Assembly (NCBI GenBank): GCA_036231405.1
Contig: JAZAHK010000010.1
Span: 1 to 14,508 of the forward strand
Source: Nitrospinota bacterium
Lineage (GTDB): Bacteria > UBA8248
Direction of reading: 5' to 3'
Length of the DNA: 14,508 nt
The notes under the pieces were generated by a model. The model was given only the letters and a program-made list of their open reading frames with translations. It searched no databases and was not told the origin of the DNA. Shown here piece after piece: positions 275 through 14,508 of the stretch (position 1 is the first letter of the stretch; the number at the start of each line of letters is the position of its first letter). Both the position numbers and the translations under genes were made by a program.

Positions 275-1708
275 CTAAACTACTTCTGCTCTGTCGTGAT
301 CTATTTTTCCATATCCCCCTTCGTCTACCCAAATCCCACGACTCCTAAGATAATTGACAACTGATTTAATCTCTTCGTCATCTCCCTTGAATTCACATAC
401 CTGCCATCCTGAATTAGTATTTACTTCACCCCTTATGATATTTACCTCTAATTTGAAATTCTTTCCAAGTTCCCATAATACAGGAAGACTTACTTGTGTG
501 GATGGAAAAGTGAGGACAAATCTTCTAGTTTCGCTTGGGATGTCAAATCCGTGGATACCTATTTCCTTTTTCAGTTCAATACGATTAAGAAAATTGTGAA
601 CTATATGCGTAAGTTTGTCATATTGAACTAAAAACGCATCATGTCCATAAGTAGATTCAACGGTATGGAGTTCAACTTTTTTATTTATTTCCTGCATAGT
701 TTCAGCTATTTCAGTACTGCACTCAGTCGGGAAAAGCCAGTCAGAAATAAAACTAATTAAACAACAATTAGTATTTAATGTTTCTAGTGCATCCTTCAAG
801 GAAGGAGCATTAGATTTCATGTCATAAAGATCCATCATTCTGGAAAGGTAAATGTAGGAGTTTGCATCAAAACGATTTGAAAATTTTTCTCCTTGATAAT
901 CTAGATATCTTTCTACTTCATATCGCGCGGTTACATCTTCAAGAAGATTTTCATTTTCTTTAGCCCTTCTTCCAAACTTTTCCCACATTATCCTGTTGCT
1001 TAAATAAGTTATGTGCGCAATCATGCGTGCAGTCATAAGTCCTTTGAAAGGATTTTTTGATTCATCATAATCGCCATTATTCCAATTTTGATCAGTCATG
1101 ATTGCGTGACGACCAATCTTGTTCCATGCGATTCCCATAGGGTTGAGATAAGCAGCGGCAGCAACTGGGATGATCGATTCACAGAAATCACTATATCGAA
1201 TACCCCATTCAAGAGTTTGCATTCCAGCAAGAGAACCACCGATGACAGTCTTAAGACCTTTTACTCCGAGTGATTGCATAGTTTTCATTTGCAATCGAAC
1301 CGTATCCTCTACGGTTACTACAGGAAAGTTCATTCCATACGGTTTTCCGCTTGAAGGATTAATTGATGTTGGTCCTGTTGTTCCAGAACATCCTCCTAGA
1401 TTATTTGTGCAAATTATGTAATATTTTCTAGTGTCAAGTGCTTTTCCAGGACCAATCATGGGGTCCCACCAACCTGGGCGTTCATCTTCTTTACTATTAA
1501 ATCCAGCAGCATGTGCATCCCCTGTAAGGGCATGAATGACTAGTATTGCGTTATCTTTATTTTCATTTAGGTTGCCGTAGGCTTCGTAAGCAACCTGCAA
1601 CTTCTCTAATGTATGGCCGGAGGATGTTTCGAAGGGTTCTTCGAAATTGACATACTCAGTTTCAACGAATTCTTGAGATTGTTTTTCATTTTGTTTGTTC
1701 ATAATCAT
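275..1708 (-). CDS. metX: Homoserine O-acetyltransferase (MetX family) with C-terminal NIL domain
   Basis: Motifs HALTGDAH, GWWDPMIGPGKALDT, NNLGGCSGTTGP, nucleophile elbow GGSLAGMQ, RFDANSY, SDWLFP and YGHDAFL. An extra ~70-aa NIL-like domain lies at about 320-526. The start could be ATG 1708 or 1702. Confidence 0.93.
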   Translation of the reverse strand: MIMNKQNEKQSQEFVETEYVNFEEPFETSSGHTLEKLQVAYEAYGNLNENKDNAILVIHALTGDAHAAGFNSKEDERPGWWDPMIGPGKALDTRKYYIICTNNLGGCSGTTGPTSINPSSGKPYGMNFPVVTVEDTVRLQMKTMQSLGVKGLKTVIGGSLAGMQTLEWGIRYSDFCESIIPVAAAAYLNPMGIAWNKIGRHAIMTDQNWNNGDYDESKNPFKGLMTARMIAHITYLSNRIMWEKFGRRAKENENLLEDVTARYEVERYLDYQGEKFSNRFDANSYIYLSRMMDLYDMKSNAPSLKDALETLNTNCCLISFISDWLFPTECSTEIAETMQEINKKVELHTVESTYGHDAFLVQYDKLTHIVHNFLNRIELKKEIGIHGFDIPSETRRFVLTFPSTQVSLPVLWELGKNFKLEVNIIRGEVNTNSGWQVCEFKGDDEEIKSVVNYLRSRGIWVDEGGYGKIDHDRAEVV

Positions 1709-1819
1709 CTCTTTGAAGAATAACTTGTCTCATACATAATAAAATTATATTTTAACGATCTTTTAAAGCTTTGGTAATATAAAATTACATTTTTATCATT
1801 TTTTTATTCTGAGAATTAA

Positions 1820-2593
1820 ATGATAGTTTCTAGTTTTGATCAAAGTATAAGATTAACTACACAGCATGATCATGCTCGTGTTGCAGGTACGATAGCGAGG
1901 AGTTGGAAGGGGAATGAAATCATTCCAGAGGTTGATGACCTTCTTAAGCGGTCAACATTTTTTGCAATCGACAACCATGATATCGGTTGGTATGAATTAG
2001 ATTTAAATCCTATCCTAGATCGAAAAATTCAAATACCATCTAGTTTTTTTTCTACTACTTCTGAGGACGCAGTTGAACTATGGAACAATAGTATCGAAAT
2101 ATGCCAAAGGTTTTCGGTTTTTTCTGGGTTTTTAGTGAGTAATCATTTTTATATGCTTGCAAAAGTAGGGATGGATAATGCTCCTGCATCACAGTATAAA
2201 ACATTAAATAATTTTGTGATTCAGGAAGAAAAACGCCAAAGGGAGTTAAAAAAAGGTATGAAAGAATTTGAAAACCTTCATGCAGAAAGTATTGGAGAAC
2301 TTTTAAGGTTATCTGATACCCTTTCACTTTTTCTCTGTGGGGCTCCAGAGATAACCCCAAAGCCACTCGTAGTTAGTTCTCTTTTGAAGGGTTCTATTAG
2401 AGTGAAAGTTTTTGAGAATTTCGAGAAAATGGAATTATCTCCATGGCCTTTTAAGAATGAATCTCTAATAGTTCATGTTCCTTCATTAACGATTCCAAGA
2501 ATGGATTTTAAAAATGATGATGATTTGCAAGATGCAATTTCACTTGGGAAGGTTAGTATCTATGAGACGGTTATAGTTCCTATGACACCTTAG
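1820..2593 (+). CDS. DUF3891-family protein (H...HD motif, putative metal-binding)
   Basis: TQHDHARVAGTIARSW...AIDNHDIGWYELD, LVSNH, D.LSLFLC and a C-terminal PWPF match the DUF3891 pattern as I recall it. Confidence 0.75.
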   Translation: MIVSSFDQSIRLTTQHDHARVAGTIARSWKGNEIIPEVDDLLKRSTFFAIDNHDIGWYELDLNPILDRKIQIPSSFFSTTSEDAVELWNNSIEICQRFSVFSGFLVSNHFYMLAKVGMDNAPASQYKTLNNFVIQEEKRQRELKKGMKEFENLHAESIGELLRLSDTLSLFLCGAPEITPKPLVVSSLLKGSIRVKVFENFEKMELSPWPFKNESLIVHVPSLTIPRMDFKNDDDLQDAISLGKVSIYETVIVPMTP

Positions 2594-3753: not shown

Positions 3754-5445
3754 TTATGCATCCGTCACACAACCTTCGGAAGCAGATGAGACACATTTCG
3801 CGTATTTATATAGTGTGCCTTTTGTAAACTTGAGGGGTGGTTCAGTCCATTCCGCTCTTCTTTTTTTAATTTCTTCATCTGATATCTTTAACTCCATTAC
3901 TCTTTTAATTGCATCTATTAATATGGGGTCTCCATCTTCTATCAAAGCAATCAATCCACCAGCCTGTGCTTCAGGAGTAACGTGTCCCACAACAAATCCG
4001 TGGGTTCCTCCAGAGAATCGGCCATCAGTTATCAGGGCCAAATCATTTCCTAATCCGGCGCCCATTATAGCGGAAGTGACAGTGAGCATTTCCCTCATGC
4101 CAGGACCTCCTTTGGGGCCTTCGTATCTTATAATGACTACGTCACCTTTATTAATTGAATTTTGTTCTAGTCCTTTCAAGGCATCTTCTTCAGAGTCAAA
4201 AACCCTAGCAGGTCCTTCAAATTTTTCGCCTTCTTTTCCCGTAATTTTCGCGACTGCCCCTTCTTCTGCCAAGTTTCCATAAAGGATCTGTATATGCCCC
4301 GAACTTTTAATAGGTTCACTGGCGGGAAAGATTATTTTTTGTCCTTTGGATAATCCAGGTAAACTGTCAACATTTTCTGCGAGTGTTTTTCCCGTTACGG
4401 TTAGACAGTTCCCTTCTAAGAATCCTTCTTCAAGGAGCAATTTTTGTACTCCAGGAACTCCACCGACATTGTGAAGGTCTTCCATTACGTATTTTCCGCT
4501 TGGTTTAAGATCCGCTATATAAGGTGTTTTATCGCTTATCCTCTGAAAGTCATCAATAGTGAGTTCGACATTAATAGCTTTTGCAATTGCGATCATATGC
4601 ATCACAGCGTTAGTCGAACCACCTAGAGCCATAATTACTGTTATGGCATTTTCGAAGGCTTGTTTAGTCATGATGTGACTGGGCAAAATATTTTTTTCAA
4701 GAAGATTATACATAGCGTCACCAATATTTGAGCATTCTATCTTTTTGTCTTCGCTCATAGCAGGGTTCGATGCACTAAAAGGGAGACTCATTCCAAGAGA
4801 TTCAATTGCAGAGGACATTGTATTCGCAGTATACATACCACCGCAGGCACCACCACTTGGGCAAGAATGGCGGATAATTTTGTCTAAATCATTTCTCTCA
4901 ATTTTACCGCTGAAAAATTCTCCATATGCTTGGAAGGCAGAAACTACATCTAGTTTTTTCCCGTCTAAGGATCCAGGGCTAATTGTTCCTCCATATACCA
5001 TCAAACTGGGTCTGTTTAATCTTGCCATTGCGATCAGAGATCCGGGCATATTTTTATCACATCCTGGTAAAGTAACTAGGCCATCGTACCACTGTGCACT
5101 TACTACGGTTTCAATGGAATCTGCGATTATATCTCTTGATTGGAGAGAATATTTCATTCCTTCTGTTCCCATAGAAATCCCGTCACTCACCCCTATAGTA
5201 TTGAAAATTAACCCTATCATTTTTTTATTTTCAGAAATGCTATGTTTTATTATTTCTGCCAGTCGGTTAAGATGAAAATTGCATGAATTTCCTTCCCACC
5301 ACATACTAGCTATGCCAATTTGTGGATTTTTCATATCTGTTTCATCTAATCCAGCTCCATAAAGCATAGCTTGCGAAGCAGCCTGGGATGCGGGTTCAGT
5401 CACTCTTTTGCTGTAAATATTTAGCTTTTTCCCCCCGTTTTCCAT
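3754..5445 (-). CDS. ilvD: Dihydroxy-acid dehydratase
   Basis: Motifs [60 protein letters not shown] and [11 protein letters not shown]. Confidence 0.97.
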
Positions 5446-5468
5446 TCTCTAATCTCCAAAAAAATTGT

Positions 5469-6161
5469 TTATCTAGAAATTTTATGTTTGGTCACAGTTC
5501 CATTACATTTTGCCCATGGACCCTTGAAACGTTTTGTCTCTAATGGCTGAGAACATTCATTCAATGGGTCTGAGCCCGATTTTACCTCTAAACCATCAGA
5601 ATATCCATCTAAATCGGTATCGCGATTGGTAGGGTCTAACCTGAGAATGACTTCATATCCGTCATTTAAAAAATCCTTGTCTGTATCCCTTAAAACGGGG
5701 TTTGTCCGAAATTTTTTGATCTCGTCTTTGTCCGACAGACCATCGCCGTCAGTATCTGCTTTCTTAGGATCTGTAAAGAACTTTTTTTCTTCGTCAATAT
5801 CCATTAATCCATCACCGTCTCTGTCTACACAGTTTTTTCTGTAAAGTTCCTGTTTTGCGATTTTTATTCTTCTCAGGGATTTGTTGATGAGATCTATGAT
5901 GAGATTCTCGTTCTCTTCGTCTTTCATGCTAGCAATTTGAAAAATCAGGAAACGAATCATTTGAAATTTAACGGGGACACAGAGTGCGAGATTGCCTTCA
6001 GTATCGAGTTTTACAAACACTTCCTTTAATAATTGATGTTCCTTGTATATAGAATCCTTTAAAGATTTAATTCTCTTTTCTGTGACCTCAGGTGTAAGAA
6101 AACGTGTGCAAGAAACTATGGATAAAATAAACATCGTTGTTATGCAAAATATTCGAAACAT
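5469..6161 (-). CDS. Putative lipoprotein with thrombospondin type-3-like Ca-binding repeats
   Basis: Hydrophobic N-terminus ending in lipobox-like IVSC (Cys18), then four DxDxDGxxDxxE...(D/N)P repeats. Confidence 0.75.
   Translation of the reverse strand: MFRIFCITTMFILSIVSCTRFLTPEVTEKRIKSLKDSIYKEHQLLKEVFVKLDTEGNLALCVPVKFQMIRFLIFQIASMKDEENENLIIDLINKSLRRIKIAKQELYRKNCVDRDGDGLMDIDEEKKFFTDPKKADTDGDGLSDKDEIKKFRTNPVLRDTDKDFLNDGYEVILRLDPTNRDTDLDGYSDGLEVKSGSDPLNECSQPLETKRFKGPWAKCNGTVTKHKISR
5562..5825 (-). repeat. Four tandem 22-23 aa Ca-binding repeats (protein level)
   Basis: DRDGDGLMDIDE, DTDGDGLSDKDE, DTDKDFLNDGYE and DTDLDGYSDGLE begin at residues 113, 136, 159 and 181. Confidence 0.85.
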
Positions 6162-6370
6162 TTTTTGCCCAATAAATAAATAAACTTTAATTGTCCAATA
6201 ATATTTGATTCAAAATAAGTGATTGATCTTATTTGATTAATATATTCCAAAATAGTTTTTGTGTTGTCTTTTTTGCCATACTTTTATCCATCACTCAAAA
6301 TATTAGAATTTAACTTCAAGTTTTGCTATTGTACTTGATATTAATAACTTTTACTTCTTAGGATTTGAAG

Positions 6371-7303
6371 ATGTCTAAACACGAACTTATAGCCGATCAT
6401 ACTAATATTCATTGGGGATTTTACGATGCTTCTTTGAGTCCTGTTCTCACTATTGATGATGGCGATACAGTTGTATTTTATACAGAGTCCGGAAGAAAAG
6501 ATCTCGTTTCAATTCTAGAGGAAAAAGTTTCTTCGCAGTTGAGGAATATTTTTTTGCATCATGAACAAGGTTTTGGTGCCCATATTATGACAGGTCCTGT
6601 TTTTATTAATGGTGCTAAAGAAGGTGATGTTTTGGAAGTCAATATAAAAGATATTCAAGTACGTTATGACTGGGGTTACAATGGGTTCCGACCACTTGTA
6701 GGCGGTCTTCCTGAAGATTTTCCCTATTCCAGAGTTGTTGTCATAGATGTAGACAAGGATAAAGGAATTGCAGATTGGGGAGCAGGAGTTAAAGTGCCTA
6801 TAAGGCCTTTCTTTGGGAATTTTGGAGTTGCCCCTCCAAGATCATATGGAAAAGTACCATCAACTCCACCAGCTGCCTGGGGAGGGAATACTGATAACAA
6901 GGAGTTTGTACCGGGAACTAAAATATTTTTCCCGATTTTCAATGACGGGGCTTTGTTTTCAATCGGCGATGGTCATGGTTGTCAAGGTGATGGAGAGGCT
7001 AATATTAATGGTATAGAAATGGGTTTGGTAGGAACCTTTGAGTTTAAGGTGAGAAAGGATTTAACGATTAACCTCCCTATTGCTCAAACAGAAACGCATC
7101 ATATTTTTATGGGATTTGACCCGATTCTAGATAACGCAGCGAAAATAGCACTTCGTGAAACTATTGATTTTTTGGTTAATTCTAAAGAAATGCATCCTGA
7201 TGATGCTTATACTTTGTGTAGTCTTGCGGTAGACCTTCGGGTAACCCAGATAGTGAATGGATTCAAAGGGGTGCATGCTATGCTGCCCAAGTCAATTTTC
7301 TAA
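6371..7303 (+). CDS. Acetamidase/formamidase family protein, paralog 1
   Basis: HIMTGPV..GA..GDVLEV, PFFGNFGVAP, GGNTD, FSIGDGHGCQGDGE and DAYTLCSLAVDLRVTQIVNG..GVH. AGGA 7 nt before ATG 6371 favours this start over TTG 6365. Confidence 0.92.
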   Translation: MSKHELIADHTNIHWGFYDASLSPVLTIDDGDTVVFYTESGRKDLVSILEEKVSSQLRNIFLHHEQGFGAHIMTGPVFINGAKEGDVLEVNIKDIQVRYDWGYNGFRPLVGGLPEDFPYSRVVVIDVDKDKGIADWGAGVKVPIRPFFGNFGVAPPRSYGKVPSTPPAAWGGNTDNKEFVPGTKIFFPIFNDGALFSIGDGHGCQGDGEANINGIEMGLVGTFEFKVRKDLTINLPIAQTETHHIFMGFDPILDNAAKIALRETIDFLVNSKEMHPDDAYTLCSLAVDLRVTQIVNGFKGVHAMLPKSIF

Positions 7304-7306
7304 TTT

Positions 7307-8257
7307 TTGGAGTTCGGTATCCATAAAATAATTGCCAATTCAAGTTCAGTCCAGTGGGGCTATTATGATCCTGAAGCAAAACCTTTGTTCAATGTTTCTT
7401 CTGGAGAGATTGTAGAAGTCTTTACAGAACCGGGAATGAGGGAAATTGACTCTGAAATGAAAGAGATGGTTTCTTCTGAACTACTAGATATTGTTGAGAA
7501 CGGAAAACGTATACTCGGTGGGCATATCCTGAATGGCCCAATAGGGATAAAAGATGCGTTGGCAGGAGATGTGCTGGAAGTAAAGATGTTAGAAATTCGT
7601 CCTAGGTATAATTGGGGTTTCAACAGGTTTCGTCCATTGTATGGTGGATTGCCTGAAGACTTTCCTTATGAAAGAAGGATTGTTATTGATATAGATAAGG
7701 AAAGTAATGTTTGCCATTGGAATACTGAAGTTGCCATTCCTCTTTCTCCGTTTTTTGGAAATATGGGAGTTGCGCCACCTTTAAAAATGGGGAAAGTGCC
7801 GTCTACTGTTCCGGGTCCCTGGGGTGGTAATATGGATAATAAAGAATTCACGGTGGGAACGAGTGTTTTTTTTCCAGTATTTATCGACGGTGCGCAGTTC
7901 TCAATTGGTGACGGTCATGGTTGTCAGGGAGATGGAGAAAGCTGTCTTTCCGCTTTGGAATGCGGTTTGGTCGGGAAGGTACAATTTTTTCTTCACAAAA
8001 ATTCTAATCTAGACATTCCCATGGCAGAATCTTCTACTGATTTTATTTTCATGGGTTTTGATCCTATCTTAGATAATGCGGTTAAGGATGTTATAAGGGA
8101 GACAATAAAATTTTTAGATGAACGTTTTCAAATACCGAAAGATGACGCATATACATTGTGCAGTCTTTCGTTGAACTTGCGTGTCACCCAAATTGTGAAT
8201 GGGACAAAAGGAGTACATGGTCTTTTGTCTAAATCTTTATTTAAGGATCTGACCTAG
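7307..8257 (+). CDS. Acetamidase/formamidase family protein, paralog 2
   Basis: Same motifs (GGNMD, GDGHGCQGDGE, ALE, TQIVNG..GVH). TTG start 3 nt after the paralog 1 stop. Confidence 0.9.
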   Translation: MEFGIHKIIANSSSVQWGYYDPEAKPLFNVSSGEIVEVFTEPGMREIDSEMKEMVSSELLDIVENGKRILGGHILNGPIGIKDALAGDVLEVKMLEIRPRYNWGFNRFRPLYGGLPEDFPYERRIVIDIDKESNVCHWNTEVAIPLSPFFGNMGVAPPLKMGKVPSTVPGPWGGNMDNKEFTVGTSVFFPVFIDGAQFSIGDGHGCQGDGESCLSALECGLVGKVQFFLHKNSNLDIPMAESSTDFIFMGFDPILDNAVKDVIRETIKFLDERFQIPKDDAYTLCSLSLNLRVTQIVNGTKGVHGLLSKSLFKDLT

Positions 8258-8258
8258 T

Positions 8259-9191
8259 ATGGAATATGAACTATTTGCGAAACCAGACAATGTGAATCGT
8301 GGTTTTTATGATGCCAGTTCTTCACCAGTTCTTTCTATTCAGTCAGGAGACACTCTCCGAGTTCATACAGAATCTGGTTTAGAAGAGCATTTAGAACTCG
8401 TTGGAGAACGTGCCTCGGATGAGTTTCGTGCAATTATAGAAAAACTTCCAATTGGACCTGGCCCTCACATCCTGATAGGTCCTATTGCTATTGAGGATGC
8501 TTCACCGGGGGATGTACTTGAAGTGCAACTGGAAGATATTTCTCCTAGATATGATTGGGGATACAATGGGTTTAGACCACTCATGGGTGGATTGCCTGAA
8601 GATTTTCCTTATCGCAAAACGGTAATTGTTGAGATCGACAAAGAACTTGGAGTAGCGGATTGGGGAGCAGGAATTCAAGTTCCATTATCCCCTTATTTTG
8701 GCAATTTTGGAGTTGCTCCCCCAGCCTCTATGGGCAAAATTGGCAGTTATCCACCTGGTGCTTGGGGTGGGAATATGGATAACAAAGAATTAGTTTCAGG
8801 TTCTAAAGTGTTTTTCCCTGTTTTTAATGAAAAAGCTCTTTTCTCAATAGGCGATGGTCATGGGTGTCAGGGGGATGGAGAAGTTTGTCTTACTGCCTTG
8901 GAGTGTGCGATGTCAGGGACGTTGAAATTTAAACTCCATAAAGATTTGTTTCTAATTCTCCCAAGAGCCGAAACTCCTACTCACCATATCTTCATGGGTT
9001 TTGATCCGCTTATTGATAATGCCGTGAAAATTGCACTTAGGGAGACGATAAAGTTTATGAGGAGTGAATACGATATTCATCGTGACGATGGATACACAAT
9101 ATGTAGTTTGGCAGTTGATCTAAGAGTGACCCAGATAGTCAACGGAGTGAAAGGGGTGCATGCTATGCTCCCTAAAAATATTTTTGTTTAA
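8259..9191 (+). CDS. Acetamidase/formamidase family protein, paralog 3
   Basis: GPHILIGPI, GGNMD, GDGHGCQGDGEVCLTALE and TQIVNGVKGVH. ATG 1 nt after the paralog 2 stop. Confidence 0.92.
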   Translation: MEYELFAKPDNVNRGFYDASSSPVLSIQSGDTLRVHTESGLEEHLELVGERASDEFRAIIEKLPIGPGPHILIGPIAIEDASPGDVLEVQLEDISPRYDWGYNGFRPLMGGLPEDFPYRKTVIVEIDKELGVADWGAGIQVPLSPYFGNFGVAPPASMGKIGSYPPGAWGGNMDNKELVSGSKVFFPVFNEKALFSIGDGHGCQGDGEVCLTALECAMSGTLKFKLHKDLFLILPRAETPTHHIFMGFDPLIDNAVKIALRETIKFMRSEYDIHRDDGYTICSLAVDLRVTQIVNGVKGVHAMLPKNIFV

Positions 9192-9220
9192 TTAATTTTA
9201 ATAGCTTTATGGAGAATTTT

Positions 9221-10345
9221 ATGACCGGTGACGAAAATAATCTGCGTCCAATTGGTTTGGCTATAGTTGGTTGCGGTAAAATTGGAAGAATCAGGGGGGA
9301 ATTTGCGCGGACTTATCCAGGTGTTGAGTGGATTGGTTTATGCGATGTCAACGAGAAAGTGGGTCGTCAATTGGCTGACGACGTAAATGCAGATTTTTAT
9401 ACAAATGACTACAAGGAATTATTGAATCGTCCAGAAGTGACTGCAACTATCATTGCTACAGATGAAACCGAACATGTCGACCCTACAATGCTTTCTATAG
9501 AGAAAAAGCACGACTTATTTATTGAGAAACCTCTGGCTACAAATGCAAAAGAATCACAGATGATTCTCGATGCAATTGAAGAGAATGATATTGATGCTGT
9601 TGTGGGTTACACACAGCGTTTTAGAAGAAGATTTCTTGTAGCAAAAGAAAAAGTTAGGACAGGACAGCTTGGTGAGGTGACTACTGTTGTTACTAGGGCG
9701 TTTATGAATCGACTCGTTCCTATTGCTACAGTCGAAAAAACCGAATATCGAGCCAAACTTACCCCTATGGTCGTTTCTGGTACGCATAGTCTAGATATTT
9801 GTATGTGGCTGATGGAAGGGAAGAAACCCGTTGAGGTCTATTCGAAAACTACAGATAAAACACTGGGAGCATCTTATGGCACGAAGGATGCAACACTTGG
9901 AATTTTCACATTTGACGATGGTACCATCTGGAGTATGAACATTAGTTGGGCGTTGCCGATTGTATGGCCAGGTTCTGTTTATAGTCTCGAAATAGGAATA
10001 GTGGGAACAGAAGGTGTCTTGACGATAGATGACACTCACAGAGATCTTGTTCTTGCGACAGAGAATCCGCAGCCTGCAGGTTATACTCCCGAAGTGAAAA
10101 GAAATGTCGATTTTCTCACTAGTTACCCCCCTGGTGATGTGGTTTTGAATCAGTTGTGGGGTCCTATGAGAGAGGAAACTAATGCATGGTTTGCGAGGGT
10201 ACATTCAGGTTTGGATACCCCTCACGCCACAGCAGAAGACGGTCATAATAATTTGATTCTTACCATGGCGATGGATCTTTCTTCCAAATTAGGGAAAGCC
10301 TTGCCTTTGCCTGTGGATTTAGAAGATCTAGAACAACTTAATTAA
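9221..10345 (+). CDS. Gfo/Idh/MocA family NAD(P)-dependent oxidoreductase
   Basis: Rossmann motif IVGCGKIG, EKPLA, VGYTQRF and GTHSLD. GGAG at 9211-9214 favours ATG 9221 over 9209. Confidence 0.92.
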   Translation: MTGDENNLRPIGLAIVGCGKIGRIRGEFARTYPGVEWIGLCDVNEKVGRQLADDVNADFYTNDYKELLNRPEVTATIIATDETEHVDPTMLSIEKKHDLFIEKPLATNAKESQMILDAIEENDIDAVVGYTQRFRRRFLVAKEKVRTGQLGEVTTVVTRAFMNRLVPIATVEKTEYRAKLTPMVVSGTHSLDICMWLMEGKKPVEVYSKTTDKTLGASYGTKDATLGIFTFDDGTIWSMNISWALPIVWPGSVYSLEIGIVGTEGVLTIDDTHRDLVLATENPQPAGYTPEVKRNVDFLTSYPPGDVVLNQLWGPMREETNAWFARVHSGLDTPHATAEDGHNNLILTMAMDLSSKLGKALPLPVDLEDLEQLN

Positions 10346-10375
10346 AAATCATTATCGAATGAGGAGAGTTTAAGA

Positions 10376-10783
10376 ATGCCTTTTTATCAGATTGCCGAAA
10401 TGGTCAAAAACAATAGTGAAATCAACCCTTCTATCACAGCAAAAAGTGTCCCTGGTGAATATATGAAAGCAGGTATTGTAACAAAACCGGAAGGGGAGGG
10501 TCCTCCTCTCCATATGCATCCTAACGAAGAGCAGTTCACATTGATTCTGGAAGGTAATCTTCATTATATATTGGGAGATGAAGATAAAATTGTTGGTCCT
10601 GGAGATATGATTCATATTCCGCGTTTTACAAATCATAGAAGCAGGGCAGTTAATGGAGAGGCTACTTTTTTTACTGTGAAAAGCCCGGCAGGTTCTGGAG
10701 AACTCGATCAGGATTATAATATGGTGGATGATGCAGAAGACGCTGAAAATCTTTATCCAGGTGAAAAACAAAGCGATAATTAA
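10376..10783 (+). CDS. Cupin domain protein
   Basis: Cupin motif 1 HMHPNEEQF...LEG and motif 2 GDMIHIPRFTNH. RBS GAGGAG at 10361-10366. Confidence 0.9.
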   Translation: MPFYQIAEMVKNNSEINPSITAKSVPGEYMKAGIVTKPEGEGPPLHMHPNEEQFTLILEGNLHYILGDEDKIVGPGDMIHIPRFTNHRSRAVNGEATFFTVKSPAGSGELDQDYNMVDDAEDAENLYPGEKQSDN

Positions 10784-10795
10784 AGGGAAAAATGT

Positions 10796-11245
10796 ATGGG
10801 CGTTCGTTTTTTTGAAGACTTTGAGGTTGGTCAAACTTTTACTGCTGGTGGAATTGAACTAACTCAAGATGAAATCATGGAATTTGCCCGTAATTACGAT
10901 CCGCAGCCTTTTCATGTGGATATAGATTATGCAGAAAAGTTTCAGTATGGAGGAATTATTGCCAGTGGATTTCATACCATGGCGGTTACGATGCGTTTAT
11001 TTGTAGATACAGGATTTTTGGGGACTTCTAGCCTTGGTTCCCCTGGAATAGAGTCGATCAAATGGCCGAATCCTGTAAGGCCTGGCGATGTGCTATCCCT
11101 CAGTGTTAGTCTTGTAAGTAAACGTGTTTCAAAGTCTGACCCTTCGCGAGGTGTGATGATTCTGGATTATACAACTACAAATCAGGAAGAAGAAGTGAAA
11201 CTCAAGATGACTGGTGCGGTACTTATGAAATGCAGTCCCAGTTAA
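10796..11245 (+). CDS. MaoC/NodN-like (R)-enoyl-CoA hydratase/dehydratase
   Basis: FFEDFEVGQ, hydratase motif YDPQPFHVD, IIASGFHT and WPNPVRPGD. Confidence 0.9.
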   Translation: MGVRFFEDFEVGQTFTAGGIELTQDEIMEFARNYDPQPFHVDIDYAEKFQYGGIIASGFHTMAVTMRLFVDTGFLGTSSLGSPGIESIKWPNPVRPGDVLSLSVSLVSKRVSKSDPSRGVMILDYTTTNQEEEVKLKMTGAVLMKCSPS

Positions 11246-11269: not shown

Positions 11270-11431
11270 ATGGGTTTGGATGAAATAAAGGAAGAAATAA
11301 AAAATTATCCTACTCCTATAGCTGGATGTGATGTGTATTTTAACTGGCTACTCGAAGAAAGAGATAGACTTCTTTCTGGAATAGAAGAAGATGAGATTGT
11401 AAAAAGAGATCATCTGACAGGTAAGTTTTGA
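11270..11431 (+). CDS. Small (53 aa) hypothetical protein with YPTPIAGCD motif, absent from the ORF track
   Basis: MGLDEIKEEIKNYPTPIAGCDVYFNWLLEERDRLLSGIEEDEIVKRDHLTGKF*. AGGA lies immediately upstream. It fills the gap between maoC and cbiX and overlaps the cbiX 3' end by 22 nt. Confidence 0.7.
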   Translation: MGLDEIKEEIKNYPTPIAGCDVYFNWLLEERDRLLSGIEEDEIVKRDHLTGKF

Positions 11432-11835
11432 CTAGATTCTTTAAAACCTTCTTCTATTCTCTGTGAAACGATATCTATAATCTTTTCGTGGAATCCAAGA
11501 TGCGGTCCTAGGTGAATTTTCACATTAGGATTTCTGGAGGCACCTATATCTACAAGATTTGGAAGATCTTTCCTAACATGATTCCCCATGTGTAGAAAGT
11601 AGGGTGTCAAAAGAATCTCTTCTGCTCCTTTGTTTGCACAAGAATCGATACATTTAGGAATAGAAGGATCATTAATTTCCAAAAAAGCAGCAGTCACAAT
11701 TCTGTCCGGCCATTTTTTCTGGATGATATCTACTACCTTGTACATATCGCGGTTAGCACCTTCTGCCCGGCTTCCATGGCCAAGAAGAATAATTGCTTTT
11801 AGAGAGTTTGAGGAATTTTCGGCTATGCCATGCAT
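11410..11835 (-). CDS. cbiX: Short single-domain sirohydrochlorin chelatase (CbiX/SirB family)
   Basis: LLGHGSR, AFLEINDPSI, PYFLHMGNHVRKDLP and HLGFH. GAGGAG/AAGGTGA lies upstream, and the start overlaps the reductase 3' end. Confidence 0.9.
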   Translation of the reverse strand: MHGIAENSSNSLKAIILLGHGSRAEGANRDMYKVVDIIQKKWPDRIVTAAFLEINDPSIPKCIDSCANKGAEEILLTPYFLHMGNHVRKDLPNLVDIGASRNPNVKIHLGPHLGFHEKIIDIVSQRIEEGFKESSQNLPVR

Positions 11836-13631
11836 TCACCTTCTCCTCTTTCAAGAACGTAGCTTTCTTTCTTTCCCCAGTCTACAAAAATTTCTTCTTT
11901 TTCTTCTTCATTAAATTGGCCGTTAATATGAAATTCCTGAAGAAGTTTTTCAAAGGACTGATTGCCCATTCTTTCAAAGAAATCGTTGAACTTTTCGTTC
12001 TCATTCCTGTTTTCTTTGTAGAAGGTGAGTATGCGTTTCACGGCATTGGGAACTCTTTTAGCAGGGATTCTTATTCTTAAACGTTCTCCAAGTTTAGTTA
12101 AACCGTTAGTGTTTTGATGCTGTCCACCTATAAATAATTCATAGGCAGGTAGCATTTTGCCTCCAGAACGAAGAGTGCCTCCGTGAAACCCGATATTCGC
12201 AATGTGATGTTGCCCGCAGGAGTTCGGACAGCCGCTCATTTTAATCTGGAGTTCTTTCGTTAAGGTGTCTTCTATCGCTTCTTCTTCCAAAGTGTTTCGT
12301 ATGGCAGTTGCCAGACCCATTGAGGAAGTAATTCCTAGTTTACAGGAATCTGTTCCAGGACAAGAGACAATATCCGTAATTTCTTGGGCTCCATTACTGG
12401 AGAGACCTATTTTTTTGAGTTCGACCCATACCCTTTTTAAATCATTCTTTTTAATCCACCTTAAGACTATATTTTGCTGGTAACTTGTTCTCGCCCTGCT
12501 TCCAGCATATTTTCTGGAAATTTCAGCCAGAGCAAAAAATTGATCTGCAGTGATATCACCAAGGGGAAGTTTTATTTCAGCAGCATAAAATCCAGATTGA
12601 AGTTGCTCCCTTACATTTGTAGATTCCCATGCAGTATATTCGTCATGATCTCCATTCAACTCTACTTCGTCTGCAGTACTAAGAAATTCTTCGTCTGTGT
12701 CTAAATCTTCGTACTCGTTATCTTCCCATAAATATTCATCAATATTGATTGGATTTGTGGCCCATTTCCCTGTCAACTCTTTTTCTACTCTTTCTCTTAA
12801 TCCGTCTATTCCTATCCAGCCTACGAGAAATTTAATTCTTGCCTTAAATCTGCTTTTTCTAAGTTCTTTTGATTTGTTGAATACTCTTACTATCGCTTCG
12901 CTTACGCGCAGAAACTCGGTTGCAGGAATAAACTCGTACAGTGTTTCTGCCACGCGGGGAAACGTTGCCAGTCCTCCTCCTACGAGCATTTTAAAACCCT
13001 TAGTGACGACACCTTCTATCTCTTTAATGACGGGGATAAATCCAATATCGTGTATCCCTGCAACGACACAATCAGAACTGCAACTTGAAAAAGCAGCTTT
13101 AAATTTCCTAGGTAGGTTTTGTATGAAATCTTTTCTAGCAAAATAACGCGCAAAAGCACCTGCGTAAGGAGTAGAATCGAAAACCTGATCTTTACAAACA
13201 CCTGCAAATGCACAGCCGGTAACATTTCTAACAGTATTTCCACATGCTTCCCGAGTGGTTAGACCAACTTTCGCAATCAAACGCATTAAGTCGGCAGCAT
13301 CTTCTAGCCTTATAAAGTGAAACTGGAAGTTTTCTCTTGTTGTTACATGGCCCTTTTTGAGAGGGGTATAGTCGCGGGCAACTACTCCGAGAGTTTCAAG
13401 CTGATCTGCAGTCATTCCGCCAAAAGGAATTTTGATTCTAAACATTTGAGAATCAGCTTGTCTTTGCCCATAGACTCCTCTCAAAAGTCTCCACCCTGTG
13501 AATTCGTTTTCGGCAAGTTCACCGTCATGAAACTTCGTAACTTCTGTTTCGAAGTCATCAAACTCTTCTTCTAAGATAGGGATAACAGGTAAAGAAACGT
13601 TTGCTGATGATTTTGAATGACTTGCACACAT
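11823..13631 (-). CDS. Siroheme-[4Fe-4S] sulfite/nitrite reductase hemoprotein (Sir/NirA/CysI family)
   Basis: GVYGQRQ, RIKIPFG, HVTTRENFQFH, ACGNTVRNV and LPRKFK, with cofactor ligands SCPGTDSC and SGCPNSCGQH. RBS TAGGAG 6 nt before ATG 13631 supports this start rather than 13691. Confidence 0.93.
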   Translation of the reverse strand: MCASHSKSSANVSLPVIPILEEEFDDFETEVTKFHDGELAENEFTGWRLLRGVYGQRQADSQMFRIKIPFGGMTADQLETLGVVARDYTPLKKGHVTTRENFQFHFIRLEDAADLMRLIAKVGLTTREACGNTVRNVTGCAFAGVCKDQVFDSTPYAGAFARYFARKDFIQNLPRKFKAAFSSCSSDCVVAGIHDIGFIPVIKEIEGVVTKGFKMLVGGGLATFPRVAETLYEFIPATEFLRVSEAIVRVFNKSKELRKSRFKARIKFLVGWIGIDGLRERVEKELTGKWATNPINIDEYLWEDNEYEDLDTDEEFLSTADEVELNGDHDEYTAWESTNVREQLQSGFYAAEIKLPLGDITADQFFALAEISRKYAGSRARTSYQQNIVLRWIKKNDLKRVWVELKKIGLSSNGAQEITDIVSCPGTDSCKLGITSSMGLATAIRNTLEEEAIEDTLTKELQIKMSGCPNSCGQHHIANIGFHGGTLRSGGKMLPAYELFIGGQHQNTNGLTKLGERLRIRIPAKRVPNAVKRILTFYKENRNENEKFNDFFERMGNQSFEKLLQEFHINGQFNEEEKEEIFVDWGKKESYVLERGEGECMA

Positions 13632-13659
13632 TTTTAGTCTCCTATACACAATTGCGTAA

Positions 13660-14508
13660 CTATATCGATAATTGCAATTTTTTATTTTCAAGAAGAGGGT
13701 TGGATTTATGAGATTCTGACTGAAAAGAATTAGAATCTGTTTTTCTGCCTTTTTTAAACCAATCTAGTTTTTCGCTAAGTTTTGCTACTTCTCCTACTAC
13801 AAAAATTGCAGGAGAAGAAATTTCTTCTCTTTCTGCGAGTTTTACAGCGTTGCCCAATGTGTCTGTGAAGTTCCTCTGATTCTCTTTTGTGGCATTTTCA
13901 ACAATAGCAATTGTTGTTTCTTTCGCCATCCCGTTTTTGATAAGTGTAAAAGAAATACGACCAATAGAACGTGCAGACATTAAAAAGACTAGAGTTCCTT
14001 TATCTTTTGCTAAATGGATGTAATCGAGATTGTCGGATTCTTTATTTGGGTCTTCATGGCCAGTAATGAATGTTACGCTTGAAGAAATTCCTCTGTGTGT
14101 TACAGGTATACCAGCAAAAGCAGGTGCAGAGATTGCGGAGGTTACACCTGGAACAATTTCAAAAGGAATATTTTCTTTTTTTAGTTCTAGTGCTTCCTCT
14201 CCACCTCTGCCAAAAACAAAGGGGTCGCCACCTTTGAGACGAACAATAGTTTTATTGTCTTTTGCAAAATCTATCATTAGTTTATTGATATTGTTCTGTG
14301 AAATTGTGTGATGGTCAGCAGATTTTCCTGCATAAATAAGTTCACAATCTGAATGACAGAAATTAAGAATTTCAGGATTAAGCAATTTGTCGTAAATTAC
14401 GACGTCCGCAATTCTTAAAAGTTTTAATGCCTTTACTGTAATCAGATCAGGATCTCCAGGTCCTGCACCTACTATATAGACCACACCTTTTGTATGTTCT
14501 TCTCTCAT
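13660..14508 (-). CDS. cobA: Uroporphyrinogen-III C-methyltransferase (SUMT)
   Basis: VGAGPGDPDLITVKA, YDKL, RLKGGDPFVFGRGGEE, VPGVTSA, GIPVTHRG and ITGH. The ATG is at the window edge, so the true start cannot be verified. Confidence 0.95.
   Translation of the reverse strand: MREEHTKGVVYIVGAGPGDPDLITVKALKLLRIADVVIYDKLLNPEILNFCHSDCELIYAGKSADHHTISQNNINKLMIDFAKDNKTIVRLKGGDPFVFGRGGEEALELKKENIPFEIVPGVTSAISAPAFAGIPVTHRGISSSVTFITGHEDPNKESDNLDYIHLAKDKGTLVFLMSARSIGRISFTLIKNGMAKETTIAIVENATKENQRNFTDTLGNAVKLAEREEISSPAIFVVGEVAKLSEKLDWFKKGRKTDSNSFQSESHKSNPLLENKKLQLSI

Follow-up and report, generated by a model that had tools for sequence, protein, structure and literature searches.

A MetX homoserine O-acyltransferase fused to a C-terminal NIL domain in the Nitrospinaceae: a candidate built-in feedback switch of methionine synthesis

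The metX-NIL locus and its domain organisation

The DNA analysed here (the window) is a stretch of 14,508 nucleotides that makes up the whole of contig 10 (JAZAHK010000010.1) of the 2.09-Mb, 92% complete genome of a member of the Nitrospinaceae (Nitrospinota; assembly GCA_036231405.1). The minus strand at 275..1708 encodes a homoserine O-acyltransferase (MetX) fused to a NIL domain, an assignment that is confirmed and far beyond chance (Table 1). The public database lists the protein plainly as homoserine O-acetyltransferase, and its database representative (P0002; 475 amino acids, aa) is shorter by two codons at its start. The peptides quoted in the first-pass annotation of the window occur exactly in the translation, and the span to which they were assigned (275-560) covers most of the linker together with the NIL domain, the tail and the stop codon.

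The NCBIfam equivalog model of MetX (NF001209) recognises residues 6-380 with 472.8 bits (cut-off: 331), and Pfam Abhydrolase_1 spans residues 54-359. The acetyl model of MetX (TIGR01392, score: 442.6; cut-off: 500) and the succinyl "exception" model (NF047916, score: 419.9; cut-off: 560) both score below their own cut-offs. The NIL domain proposed by the first-pass annotation for the C-terminus was readily detected by the profile hidden Markov model of Pfam (PF09383: residues 396-461, E-value 7.7e-13, 48.6 bits; gathering cut-off: 24), and its score rose to 52.4 bits when the 101-aa C-terminal piece was scanned alone; a family search of the whole genome placed the match at 323-523. No Pfam family other than NIL, and in particular no ACT family, matched the extension in the whole protein at E <= 1; the 101-aa piece also gave DUF1749 (0.19), which we took as a chance match.

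Table 1. Positions of the metX-NIL gene, of its parts and flanks, and of the gene clusters discussed in the text (the first eight rows refer to the window).
Feature	Position	Strand	Basis
metX-NIL gene, complete; single open reading frame (ORF) of 477 codons, stop at 275-277	275..1708	-	translation; Pfam and NCBIfam matches
MetX catalytic part, residues 1-376; alpha/beta-hydrolase with lid, Ser159/Asp323/His356	581..1708	-	NF001209, invariance, Foldseek
Linker, residues 377-395	524..580	-	conservation counts, predicted local distance difference test (pLDDT)
NIL domain, residues 396-463; NIL-motif Asn423	320..523	-	PF09383, secondary structure, Foldseek
C-terminal tail, residues 464-477	278..319	-	GG, three variable residues, IDHDRAEVV-COOH
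Divergent intergenic region 5' of metX-NIL	1709..1819		Rfam scan, sequence reading
DsbA-like thioredoxin-fold gene, 5' part, cut by the contig end	1..165	-	frame by eye; start (~165) approximate
DUF3891 gene, divergent from metX-NIL	1820-2593	+	126 bits
Sister-family NIL cluster L016 (genome G028, contig 2)	7450-9973		ORFs and families
Sister-family NIL cluster L017	5153-7446		ORFs and motifs
Sister-family NIL cluster L018	7753-10119		ORFs and motifs
Own-genome CysK-like / ThiS-family carrier / CysM-like / JAB cluster, followed by an Rrf2-type regulator (contig 2, L031)	5335-8115		

Distribution of the fusion

A survey of 51 Nitrospinota genomes (E <= 1e-15) found the NIL extension on MetX in all 42 Nitrospinaceae, the source genome included, and in none of the nine genomes from outside the family. 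With the 101-residue extension as a query, all 24 other family genomes searched gave matches in frames of about 480-500 residues, and neither of the two genomes from the other two families of the order gave such a match. The full protein likewise matched 24/24 family genomes; in 22 of them the alignment runs through to residue 477 in one unbroken frame with no internal stop in the listed matches, several of these being single-contig genomes (G009, G014, G024). The two remaining genomes (G015 and G021) carry the gene in two pieces, and both breaks coincide with contig ends. No MetX match at E <= 1e-30 was found in the 16 relatives from outside the family.

In a collection of 5.8 billion proteins, at least 31 of the best 120 clusters listed contain both Pfam domains (423-478 residues, 57-100% identity; one has the source name "Nitrospinota bacterium"). 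The other 89 lack NIL and mostly comprise ~370-420 residues with the hydrolase domain alone, the additional extensions among them being CBS (488 aa) and MetW (~600 aa), in agreement with the earlier statement that other MetX proteins are stand-alone or extended by CBS or MetW. A search of a library of 1.84 billion representatives with the extension returned one 478-residue representative and two fragments of the same, and among the best 150 of 179 matches listed the MetX-NIL architecture was found in one clade only; a word-index search of longer proteins with the 101-aa piece reported nine proteins, all of them MetX-NIL or fragments thereof, and so says nothing about other fusions.

The first-pass annotation had named an artefact as one of the findings that would undo its claim. 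An origin of the fusion in faulty assembly or gene calling, with orthologues that are truly split, can be ruled out by the unbroken frames, some of them in single-contig genomes, by the presence in 42/42 genomes and by the 31 of 120 clusters; the only split copies break where their contigs end, and we regard the probability of an artefact as negligible.

The catalytic part

Ser159, Asp323, His356 and Arg228 are invariant across 65 aligned MetX sequences. The Foldseek search with the full-length model reported MetX of Leptospira interrogans as the best match (2pl5, 45% identity, template modelling (TM) score normalised to the target: 0.91), with target TM values of 0.91-0.92 for the two solved MetX structures 2pl5 and 2b61. 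The solved homologues listed by Foldseek all have 327-375 residues and none of those listed bears a comparable extension. MetX forms a dimer in its solved structures. The catalytic triad is intact, and we predict an active MetX homoserine O-acyltransferase.

The fused clade also differs from other MetX proteins within the catalytic part. At 34 positions a residue present in at least 29 of 30 fused proteins occurs in at most three of 35 stand-alone MetX proteins, and some of these positions adjoin the nucleophile: A161, two residues past it, corresponds to Gly in 33/35 stand-alone proteins. Further examples are M191 (Gln in 33/35), W195 (Phe in 35/35), M291 (Ala in 35/35) and Q362 (Glu in 35/35). 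These substitutions may reflect co-adaptation to the NIL domain or an altered acyl or substrate preference.

Conservation and predicted structure of the extension

Conservation was assessed in 30 fused proteins, after one further sequence (P0034) had been dropped for its aberrant C-terminus. The mean pairwise identity is 0.75 in the catalytic part, 0.53 in the linker, 0.62 in the NIL domain and 0.82 in the last 14 residues; this tail, better conserved than the enzyme itself, had not been remarked upon in the first-pass annotation. Within the linker, G384 is present in 30/30 and P391 in 29/30 proteins. The N-I-L/I motif characteristic of the family is found at the start of strand 2 as "VNII" (residues 422-425), N423 being kept in 28/30 and I424 in 27/30 proteins, and further invariant or nearly invariant residues are R396, P409, L411-W412-E413, R426, S433-G-W-Q-V-C-E439, G442, R455, G458 and W460. 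Cys438, present in 29/30 fused proteins, is absent from the stand-alone NIL proteins described below. Across the six pairs formed by the genus's four genomes, the ratio of nonsynonymous to synonymous substitution rates (dN/dS, Nei-Gojobori) lies at 0.04-0.065 in residues 377-477 and at 0.065-0.13 in residues 12-376, with the three pairs that involve the source genome near synonymous saturation (proportion of synonymous differences ~0.6) and the other three not. The extension is thus under purifying selection at least as strong as that on the enzyme and, judging from this pattern of sequence conservation, it is functional.

The earlier expectation of a NIL-like fold is supported by structure prediction. 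The AlphaFold2 model of the full-length protein (mean pLDDT: 90; predicted TM score, pTM: 0.91) and the model of the extension folded alone agree on strands 396-401, 421-429, 434-441 and 460-463 and helices 410-417 and 444-456, i.e. a ferredoxin-like beta-alpha-beta-beta-alpha-beta arrangement, which is the fold of NIL domains. All 11 Foldseek matches of the domain in the PDB at E <= 1e-3 are C2/NIL domains of the methionine transporter ATPase MetN (among the entries 3tui, 3tuz, 3dhw, 3dhx, 2qrr, 2qsw, 6cvl and 3ced; query TM: 0.61-0.67; 13-21% identity). The linker has a pLDDT of ~94-95 in the full-length model versus 54-81 with the extension folded alone, and the tail 83/64 versus ~40; because these values are higher in the full-length model, and with the pTM of 0.91, the models suggest that the linker and the tail pack on the enzyme in a fixed docking.

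Such a docking would also suit a structural domain that binds no ligand, in which NIL-NIL pairing and the tail steady the MetX dimer or a higher oligomer. NIL (C2) domains are described as dimerising in MetN (PMC10710835, PMC6233128), the confidently modelled linker and the pTM suggest a rigid assembly, and the 34 clade-specific positions of the catalytic part could reflect co-adaptation to a permanent extra domain. A simple stabiliser, however, would require neither a tail that is the most conserved segment of the protein nor the retention of the Asn at the ligand site of MetN (see below), and the MetX of nearly all other lineages works without any extension; we consider a purely structural role rather improbable.

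The family of small NIL proteins and its genomic context

The first-pass annotation had framed the extension by MetN and the NIL-ferredoxins. The assignment to the NIL domain stands, whereas the framing does not: by sequence, the extension belongs to a family of ~80-aa stand-alone NIL proteins and not to MetN or NIL-ferredoxin. Its nearest relatives are ~80-residue stand-alone proteins with 31-44% identity. Among the best 150 of 179 representative matches there is no protein of the size of MetN; the 149 representatives listed besides the 478-residue one comprise 87 of up to 100 aa, 54 of 101-200 aa, four of 201-300 aa, and four long repeat proteins matched over ~20-60 residues in several stretches. 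The extension aligns with the 80-residue NIL proteins without gaps from "RRxxLTFP" to "VDP..G"; they end in "VDPxEGDxVEG", and the tail of MetX-NIL runs seven residues past their C-terminal end. A features search of the ESM Atlas also gave clusters of 73-93-residue NIL proteins as the nearest, with scores below 0.8, which we treat only as a lead.

According to Pfam, several of these representatives combine NIL with itself or with other domains: tandem NIL-NIL (P0123, P0126, P0138), NIL directly behind the GG end of a ThiS-family carrier (P0131, P0158), a Prok-JAB protease with NIL (P0225, 237 aa), NIL with a GNAT acetyltransferase (P0210, 237 aa) and NIL with a 4Fe-4S ferredoxin (P0149), NIL-ferredoxins being few among the near relatives.

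Analysis of a sister family of the Nitrospinaceae revealed two adjacent small NIL genes in 7/7 genomes. In the three loci inspected (L016, L017 and L018) they follow genes for a ThrC-like pyridoxal-phosphate enzyme that has a zinc ribbon at its N-terminus, a ThiS/MoaD-family carrier that ends in AIAGG plus a short extension, and a JAB protease. The ThrC-like enzyme, carrier and JAB protease correspond to the MetM/MetO/Mec route as given in Table 2 of PMC13759103, where it is presented as the O-phosphohomoserine route of Streptomyces (Hasebe et al. 2024, as cited in PMC13759103). The sister-family cluster thus looks like a MetM/MetO/Mec-type homocysteine route with two additional NIL partners, and we found no description of a role for the small NIL proteins of the thiocarboxylate-dependent homocysteine route in the literature searched. 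None of the seven sister-family genomes has a MetX match (E <= 1e-30), and only one of the 16 relatives from outside the Nitrospinaceae, the sister-family genome G027, has a MetY match.

The source genome is organised differently. Its MetY is of the O-acetylhomoserine type (TIGR01326: 618.7 bits, cut-off: 495); no HcyBio/DUF39 or MetW match was found in the genome, nor any match to a second NIL domain beyond that of metX-NIL. Contig 2 carries a CysO/CysM/Mec-like thiocarboxylate cluster (Table 1), whose ThiS-family carrier has 108 aa and ends in AIAGGI. This cluster has no NIL genes and adjoins ppiD-like and thiD genes, the same flanks as those of the NIL cluster in the sister family. The simplest history, we infer, is that the ancestor of the family changed from a carrier-dependent route to MetX plus MetY, and that the NIL module ended up on MetX.

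The context of the small NIL proteins suggests, since the closest of them adjoin or are fused to carrier and JAB proteins, that the domain might be a docking or assembly module that ties MetX to a ThiS/CysO-like carrier, to JAB or to MetY, with O-acetylhomoserine handed on and nothing sensed. The sister-family operons with their tandem NIL pairs, the natural ThiS-NIL and JAB-NIL fusions, the carrier/JAB cluster of the source genome, which has no NIL of its own but lies beside the same neighbours, and the JAB gene found in 23/24 family genomes all fit this explanation, although MetY, present in 24/24, is as good as universal too, so that co-occurrence cannot separate the explanations. Krishnamoorthy and Begley reportedly found in 2011 that MetY of Wolinella can use a protein thiocarboxylate together with O-acetylhomoserine. 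Against docking, MetX handles no sulfur, and MetY or the carrier would be the more likely bearer of a sulfur-delivery module; metX-NIL lies between the DUF3891 and DsbA-like genes, outside the gene setting of the stand-alone partners, and is unlinked to metY and to the carrier/JAB genes, the three being on three different contigs; and the Asn that contacts the ligand in MetN is conserved. We judge docking unlikely, while ranking it with sensing as one of the two leading explanations of the extension.

The conserved tail and the nearly invariant GG at residues 464-465 call for another alternative, namely that the tail is a degradation or processing signal which the NIL domain exposes or hides according to the methionine supply, with GG as a possible JAB site. 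The tail is the best conserved segment, its motif does not recur elsewhere in the source genome (11,471 stop-to-stop frames of at least 50 aa), and in the ThiS-NIL fusions the GG end that precedes NIL would need release by JAB. The homoserine acyltransferase of Escherichia coli, MetA, is controlled by proteolysis. Its instability is also documented in PMC3735405. On the other hand, the second Gly corresponds in the alignment to the Gly in the "LGY" with which MetN C2 ends and so is a feature of the fold and not necessarily a cleavage site, stand-alone NIL proteins have a related ending with no enzyme attached, and no protease gene adjoins metX-NIL; a processing signal seems very unlikely to us. 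The idea that GG is itself the end of a thiocarboxylate carrier was dropped, as the fold is ferredoxin-like and not beta-grasp and the second Gly is that of "LGY" in MetN.

Possible role as a methionine-branch sensor

MetX uses homoserine and an acyl-CoA (CoA: coenzyme A), with no sulfur involved, and carries out the first committed step toward methionine, where feedback control is expected. We favour the explanation that the extension is a cis-acting feedback sensor of the methionine branch, to which we give about an even chance, since a pair-forming, ligand-binding domain with a ferredoxin-like fold attached to the committed enzyme is the classic layout of end-product feedback. MetX-NIL would then probably represent a built-in feedback switch on the first enzyme of methionine synthesis.

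In the mechanism that we envisage, the NIL domain would sense a small molecule of the methionine branch, most likely L-methionine, with homocysteine, S-adenosylmethionine (SAM) and O-acetylhomoserine as other candidates. The two NIL domains of a MetX dimer would pair via their beta-sheets, as in MetN C2, and the ligand would sit at the NIL-NIL interface in contact with Asn423. The signal might travel to the catalytic domain through the ordered linker, the IDHDRAEVV tail or both, and the ligand-bound state would lower MetX activity. All of this is put forward by inference: that a ligand binds and which one, that the NIL domains dimerise, what the tail does and in which direction activity changes.

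A parallel is provided by E. coli MetN, in which two methionines between the paired C2 domains are described as locking the transporter, each L-methionine on one C2 domain being hydrogen-bonded by N295 of the other; N295A abolishes measurable binding (PMC6233128, PMC10710835) and raises the Ki (inhibition constant) for L-methionine 28-fold (PMC12357092). A HMMER alignment to 3dhx identifies N295 as the Asn of the N-I-(I/L) motif and pairs it with Asn423; counting back from the C-terminus of 3dhx places N, A and M at 295, 299 and 301, which matches the published positions. The conservation of the Asn aligned to N295 supports sensing. A MetY partner is encoded in the source genome and in all 24 family genomes searched, and the methanogen MetX with a C-terminal CBS pair is a precedent for a sensor module on the same enzyme. 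Members of the small NIL subfamily are also found with ThrC-like (MetM-type) enzymes, which catalyse the committed step of a different route. A scan of the whole window at Rfam gathering thresholds gave no riboswitch match, none lying 5' of metX-NIL, which fits control of MetX at the protein level, as a weak indication.

Several observations weigh against a methionine sensor. The alignment to MetN C2 is weak (E-value 0.37 for 3dhx and 0.012 for 2qrr), with an identity of ~20% and a four-residue insertion in MetN; and as this Asn gives its name to the whole NIL family, its conservation is compatible with binding and not specific to methionine. The nearest relatives are small NIL proteins instead of MetN, and the fusion of some of them to ThiS carriers or JAB could point to protein-protein work. 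The differences in pLDDT are soft evidence of packing. The stand-alone MetX of Leptospira meyeri is reportedly not feedback inhibited, and such control is not universal. Finally, neither the nearly invariant Cys438 nor the 34 clade-specific catalytic positions are accounted for by any of the explanations offered here.

We tentatively extend the sensor hypothesis to the small NIL proteins at large. It is possible, with rather less assurance than for the sensor itself, that the small (~80-residue) NIL proteins form a family of portable sensors for the methionine branch, acting in trans or in cis on whichever enzyme channels activated homoserine, or the precursor of it, into homocysteine, that one of them was captured by MetX when the ancestor of the Nitrospinaceae swapped the carrier-dependent route, which the sister family retains, for MetX and MetY, and that the tail is the effector. 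NIL could then, as we equally tentatively suggest, be seen as a free protein next to MetM-type enzymes, as a ferredoxin-linked domain next to DUF39, and as a part captured by MetX in the present case. The IDHDRAEVV tail would act on the acyltransferase as a plug or latch, shifted when the NIL domains pair in response to the ligand.

Comparison with known systems

The C2 domain of E. coli MetN (3dhw, 3dhx, 3tui, 3tuz, 6cvl) shares the Pfam family and the ferredoxin-like fold with the extension and supplies its best structural matches; in both cases the domain is a C-terminal appendage of a protein that controls the methionine supply, and N295 corresponds to Asn423. The host proteins are different, a soluble acyltransferase of the alpha/beta-hydrolase fold in MetX-NIL and an ATP-binding cassette (ABC) ATPase in MetN: the MetN model TIGR02314 (ABC_MetN) covers only residues 399-466 of MetX-NIL, with 16.2 bits (cut-off: 499.7), and no ABC ATPase is attached. 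The IDHDRAEVV tail and Cys438 have no counterpart in MetN.

The stand-alone NIL proteins resemble the NIL domain of MetX in their acidic-hydrophobic C-terminal ending and in their link to the conversion of activated homoserine to homocysteine. They are free or tandem proteins beside a sulfur-carrier route, whereas in MetX-NIL the domain is covalently attached, extends seven residues further and occurs in a genome that uses MetX plus MetY.

The link of NIL/ferredoxin to homocysteine synthesis, mentioned in the first-pass annotation, is found in PMC5764234, which describes a genetic tie for the NIL/ferredoxin of the DUF39 (HcyBio) pathway (Methanosarcina MA1822, Desulfovibrio DvMF_0262). That protein differs in its 4Fe-4S domains and in working with DUF39 from aspartate semialdehyde, while the metX-NIL genome has no HcyBio match. 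MetX-CBS of methanogens (488 aa) and MetX-MetW (~600 aa) represent the same enzyme with C-terminal accessory domains of unrelated families; the CBS pair is a recognised ligand-sensing module, and we found no functional study of either fusion in the literature searched.

ACT modules are also ferredoxin-like (beta-alpha-beta-beta-alpha-beta); fused to a committed enzyme, they pair and bind the end-product amino acid at their interface. The likeness of the extension to them is at the level of the fold only, given the lack of a Pfam ACT match.

Other genes of the window

The two neighbours of metX-NIL are kept in a locus of the same genus (L021), where the DUF3891 gene recurs and the ORF that matches the DsbA-like gene (9917-10363) has a Pfam DSBA match of 80 bits. 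The DsbA-like gene, downstream of metX-NIL, is reported as context only and forms no part of the proposed system.

On the plus strand, positions 6365-9191 contain three tandem paralogous genes of the acetamidase/formamidase family (Pfam FmdA_AmdA; 312, 316 and 310 aa), followed by genes for a Gfo/Idh/MocA-type oxidoreductase (9209-10345), a cupin (10376-10783) and a MaoC-like hydratase (10796-11245). An operon-like group on the minus strand (11410-14508) encodes a uroporphyrinogen-III C-methyltransferase cut by the end of the window, a 622-aa haemoprotein of the NirA/sulfite reductase family and a small CbiX/CfbA-like sirohydrochlorin chelatase; the best NCBIfam match of the haemoprotein, "NirA family", has 253 bits and is below the cut-off of 523, which leaves nitrite versus sulfite reductase undecided. 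A protein of 230 aa encoded on the minus strand at 5469-6161 has bacterial thrombospondin type-3 (calcium-binding) repeats; its N-terminus is probably a signal or lipoprotein-like segment.

Conclusions

In MetX-NIL, two known domains and an additional conserved tail are joined in an uncharacterised arrangement that is fixed in one lineage. The first-pass annotation knew of no characterised fusion of this kind, and we likewise found none described in the full-text literature searched, which excluded subscription papers. In most bacteria MetX is the enzyme that commits homoserine to methionine synthesis, and it is a target in drug design and metabolic engineering. To our knowledge, little is understood about the control of MetX after translation, and there is no characterised example of an allosteric domain on this enzyme.

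The fusion has become fixed throughout the Nitrospinaceae, which are abundant marine nitrite oxidisers, and would offer a natural case of end-product control within the enzyme. With the NIL domain fused in cis, there is also a way into the function of the small NIL proteins that go with the recently described thiocarboxylate-dependent homocysteine route in several phyla. If docking were true, the fusion would physically connect homoserine activation with the delivery of protein-borne sulfur; if the NIL family is indeed a portable sensor, it would be a "Rosetta stone" for the undescribed NIL partners of several homocysteine pathways.

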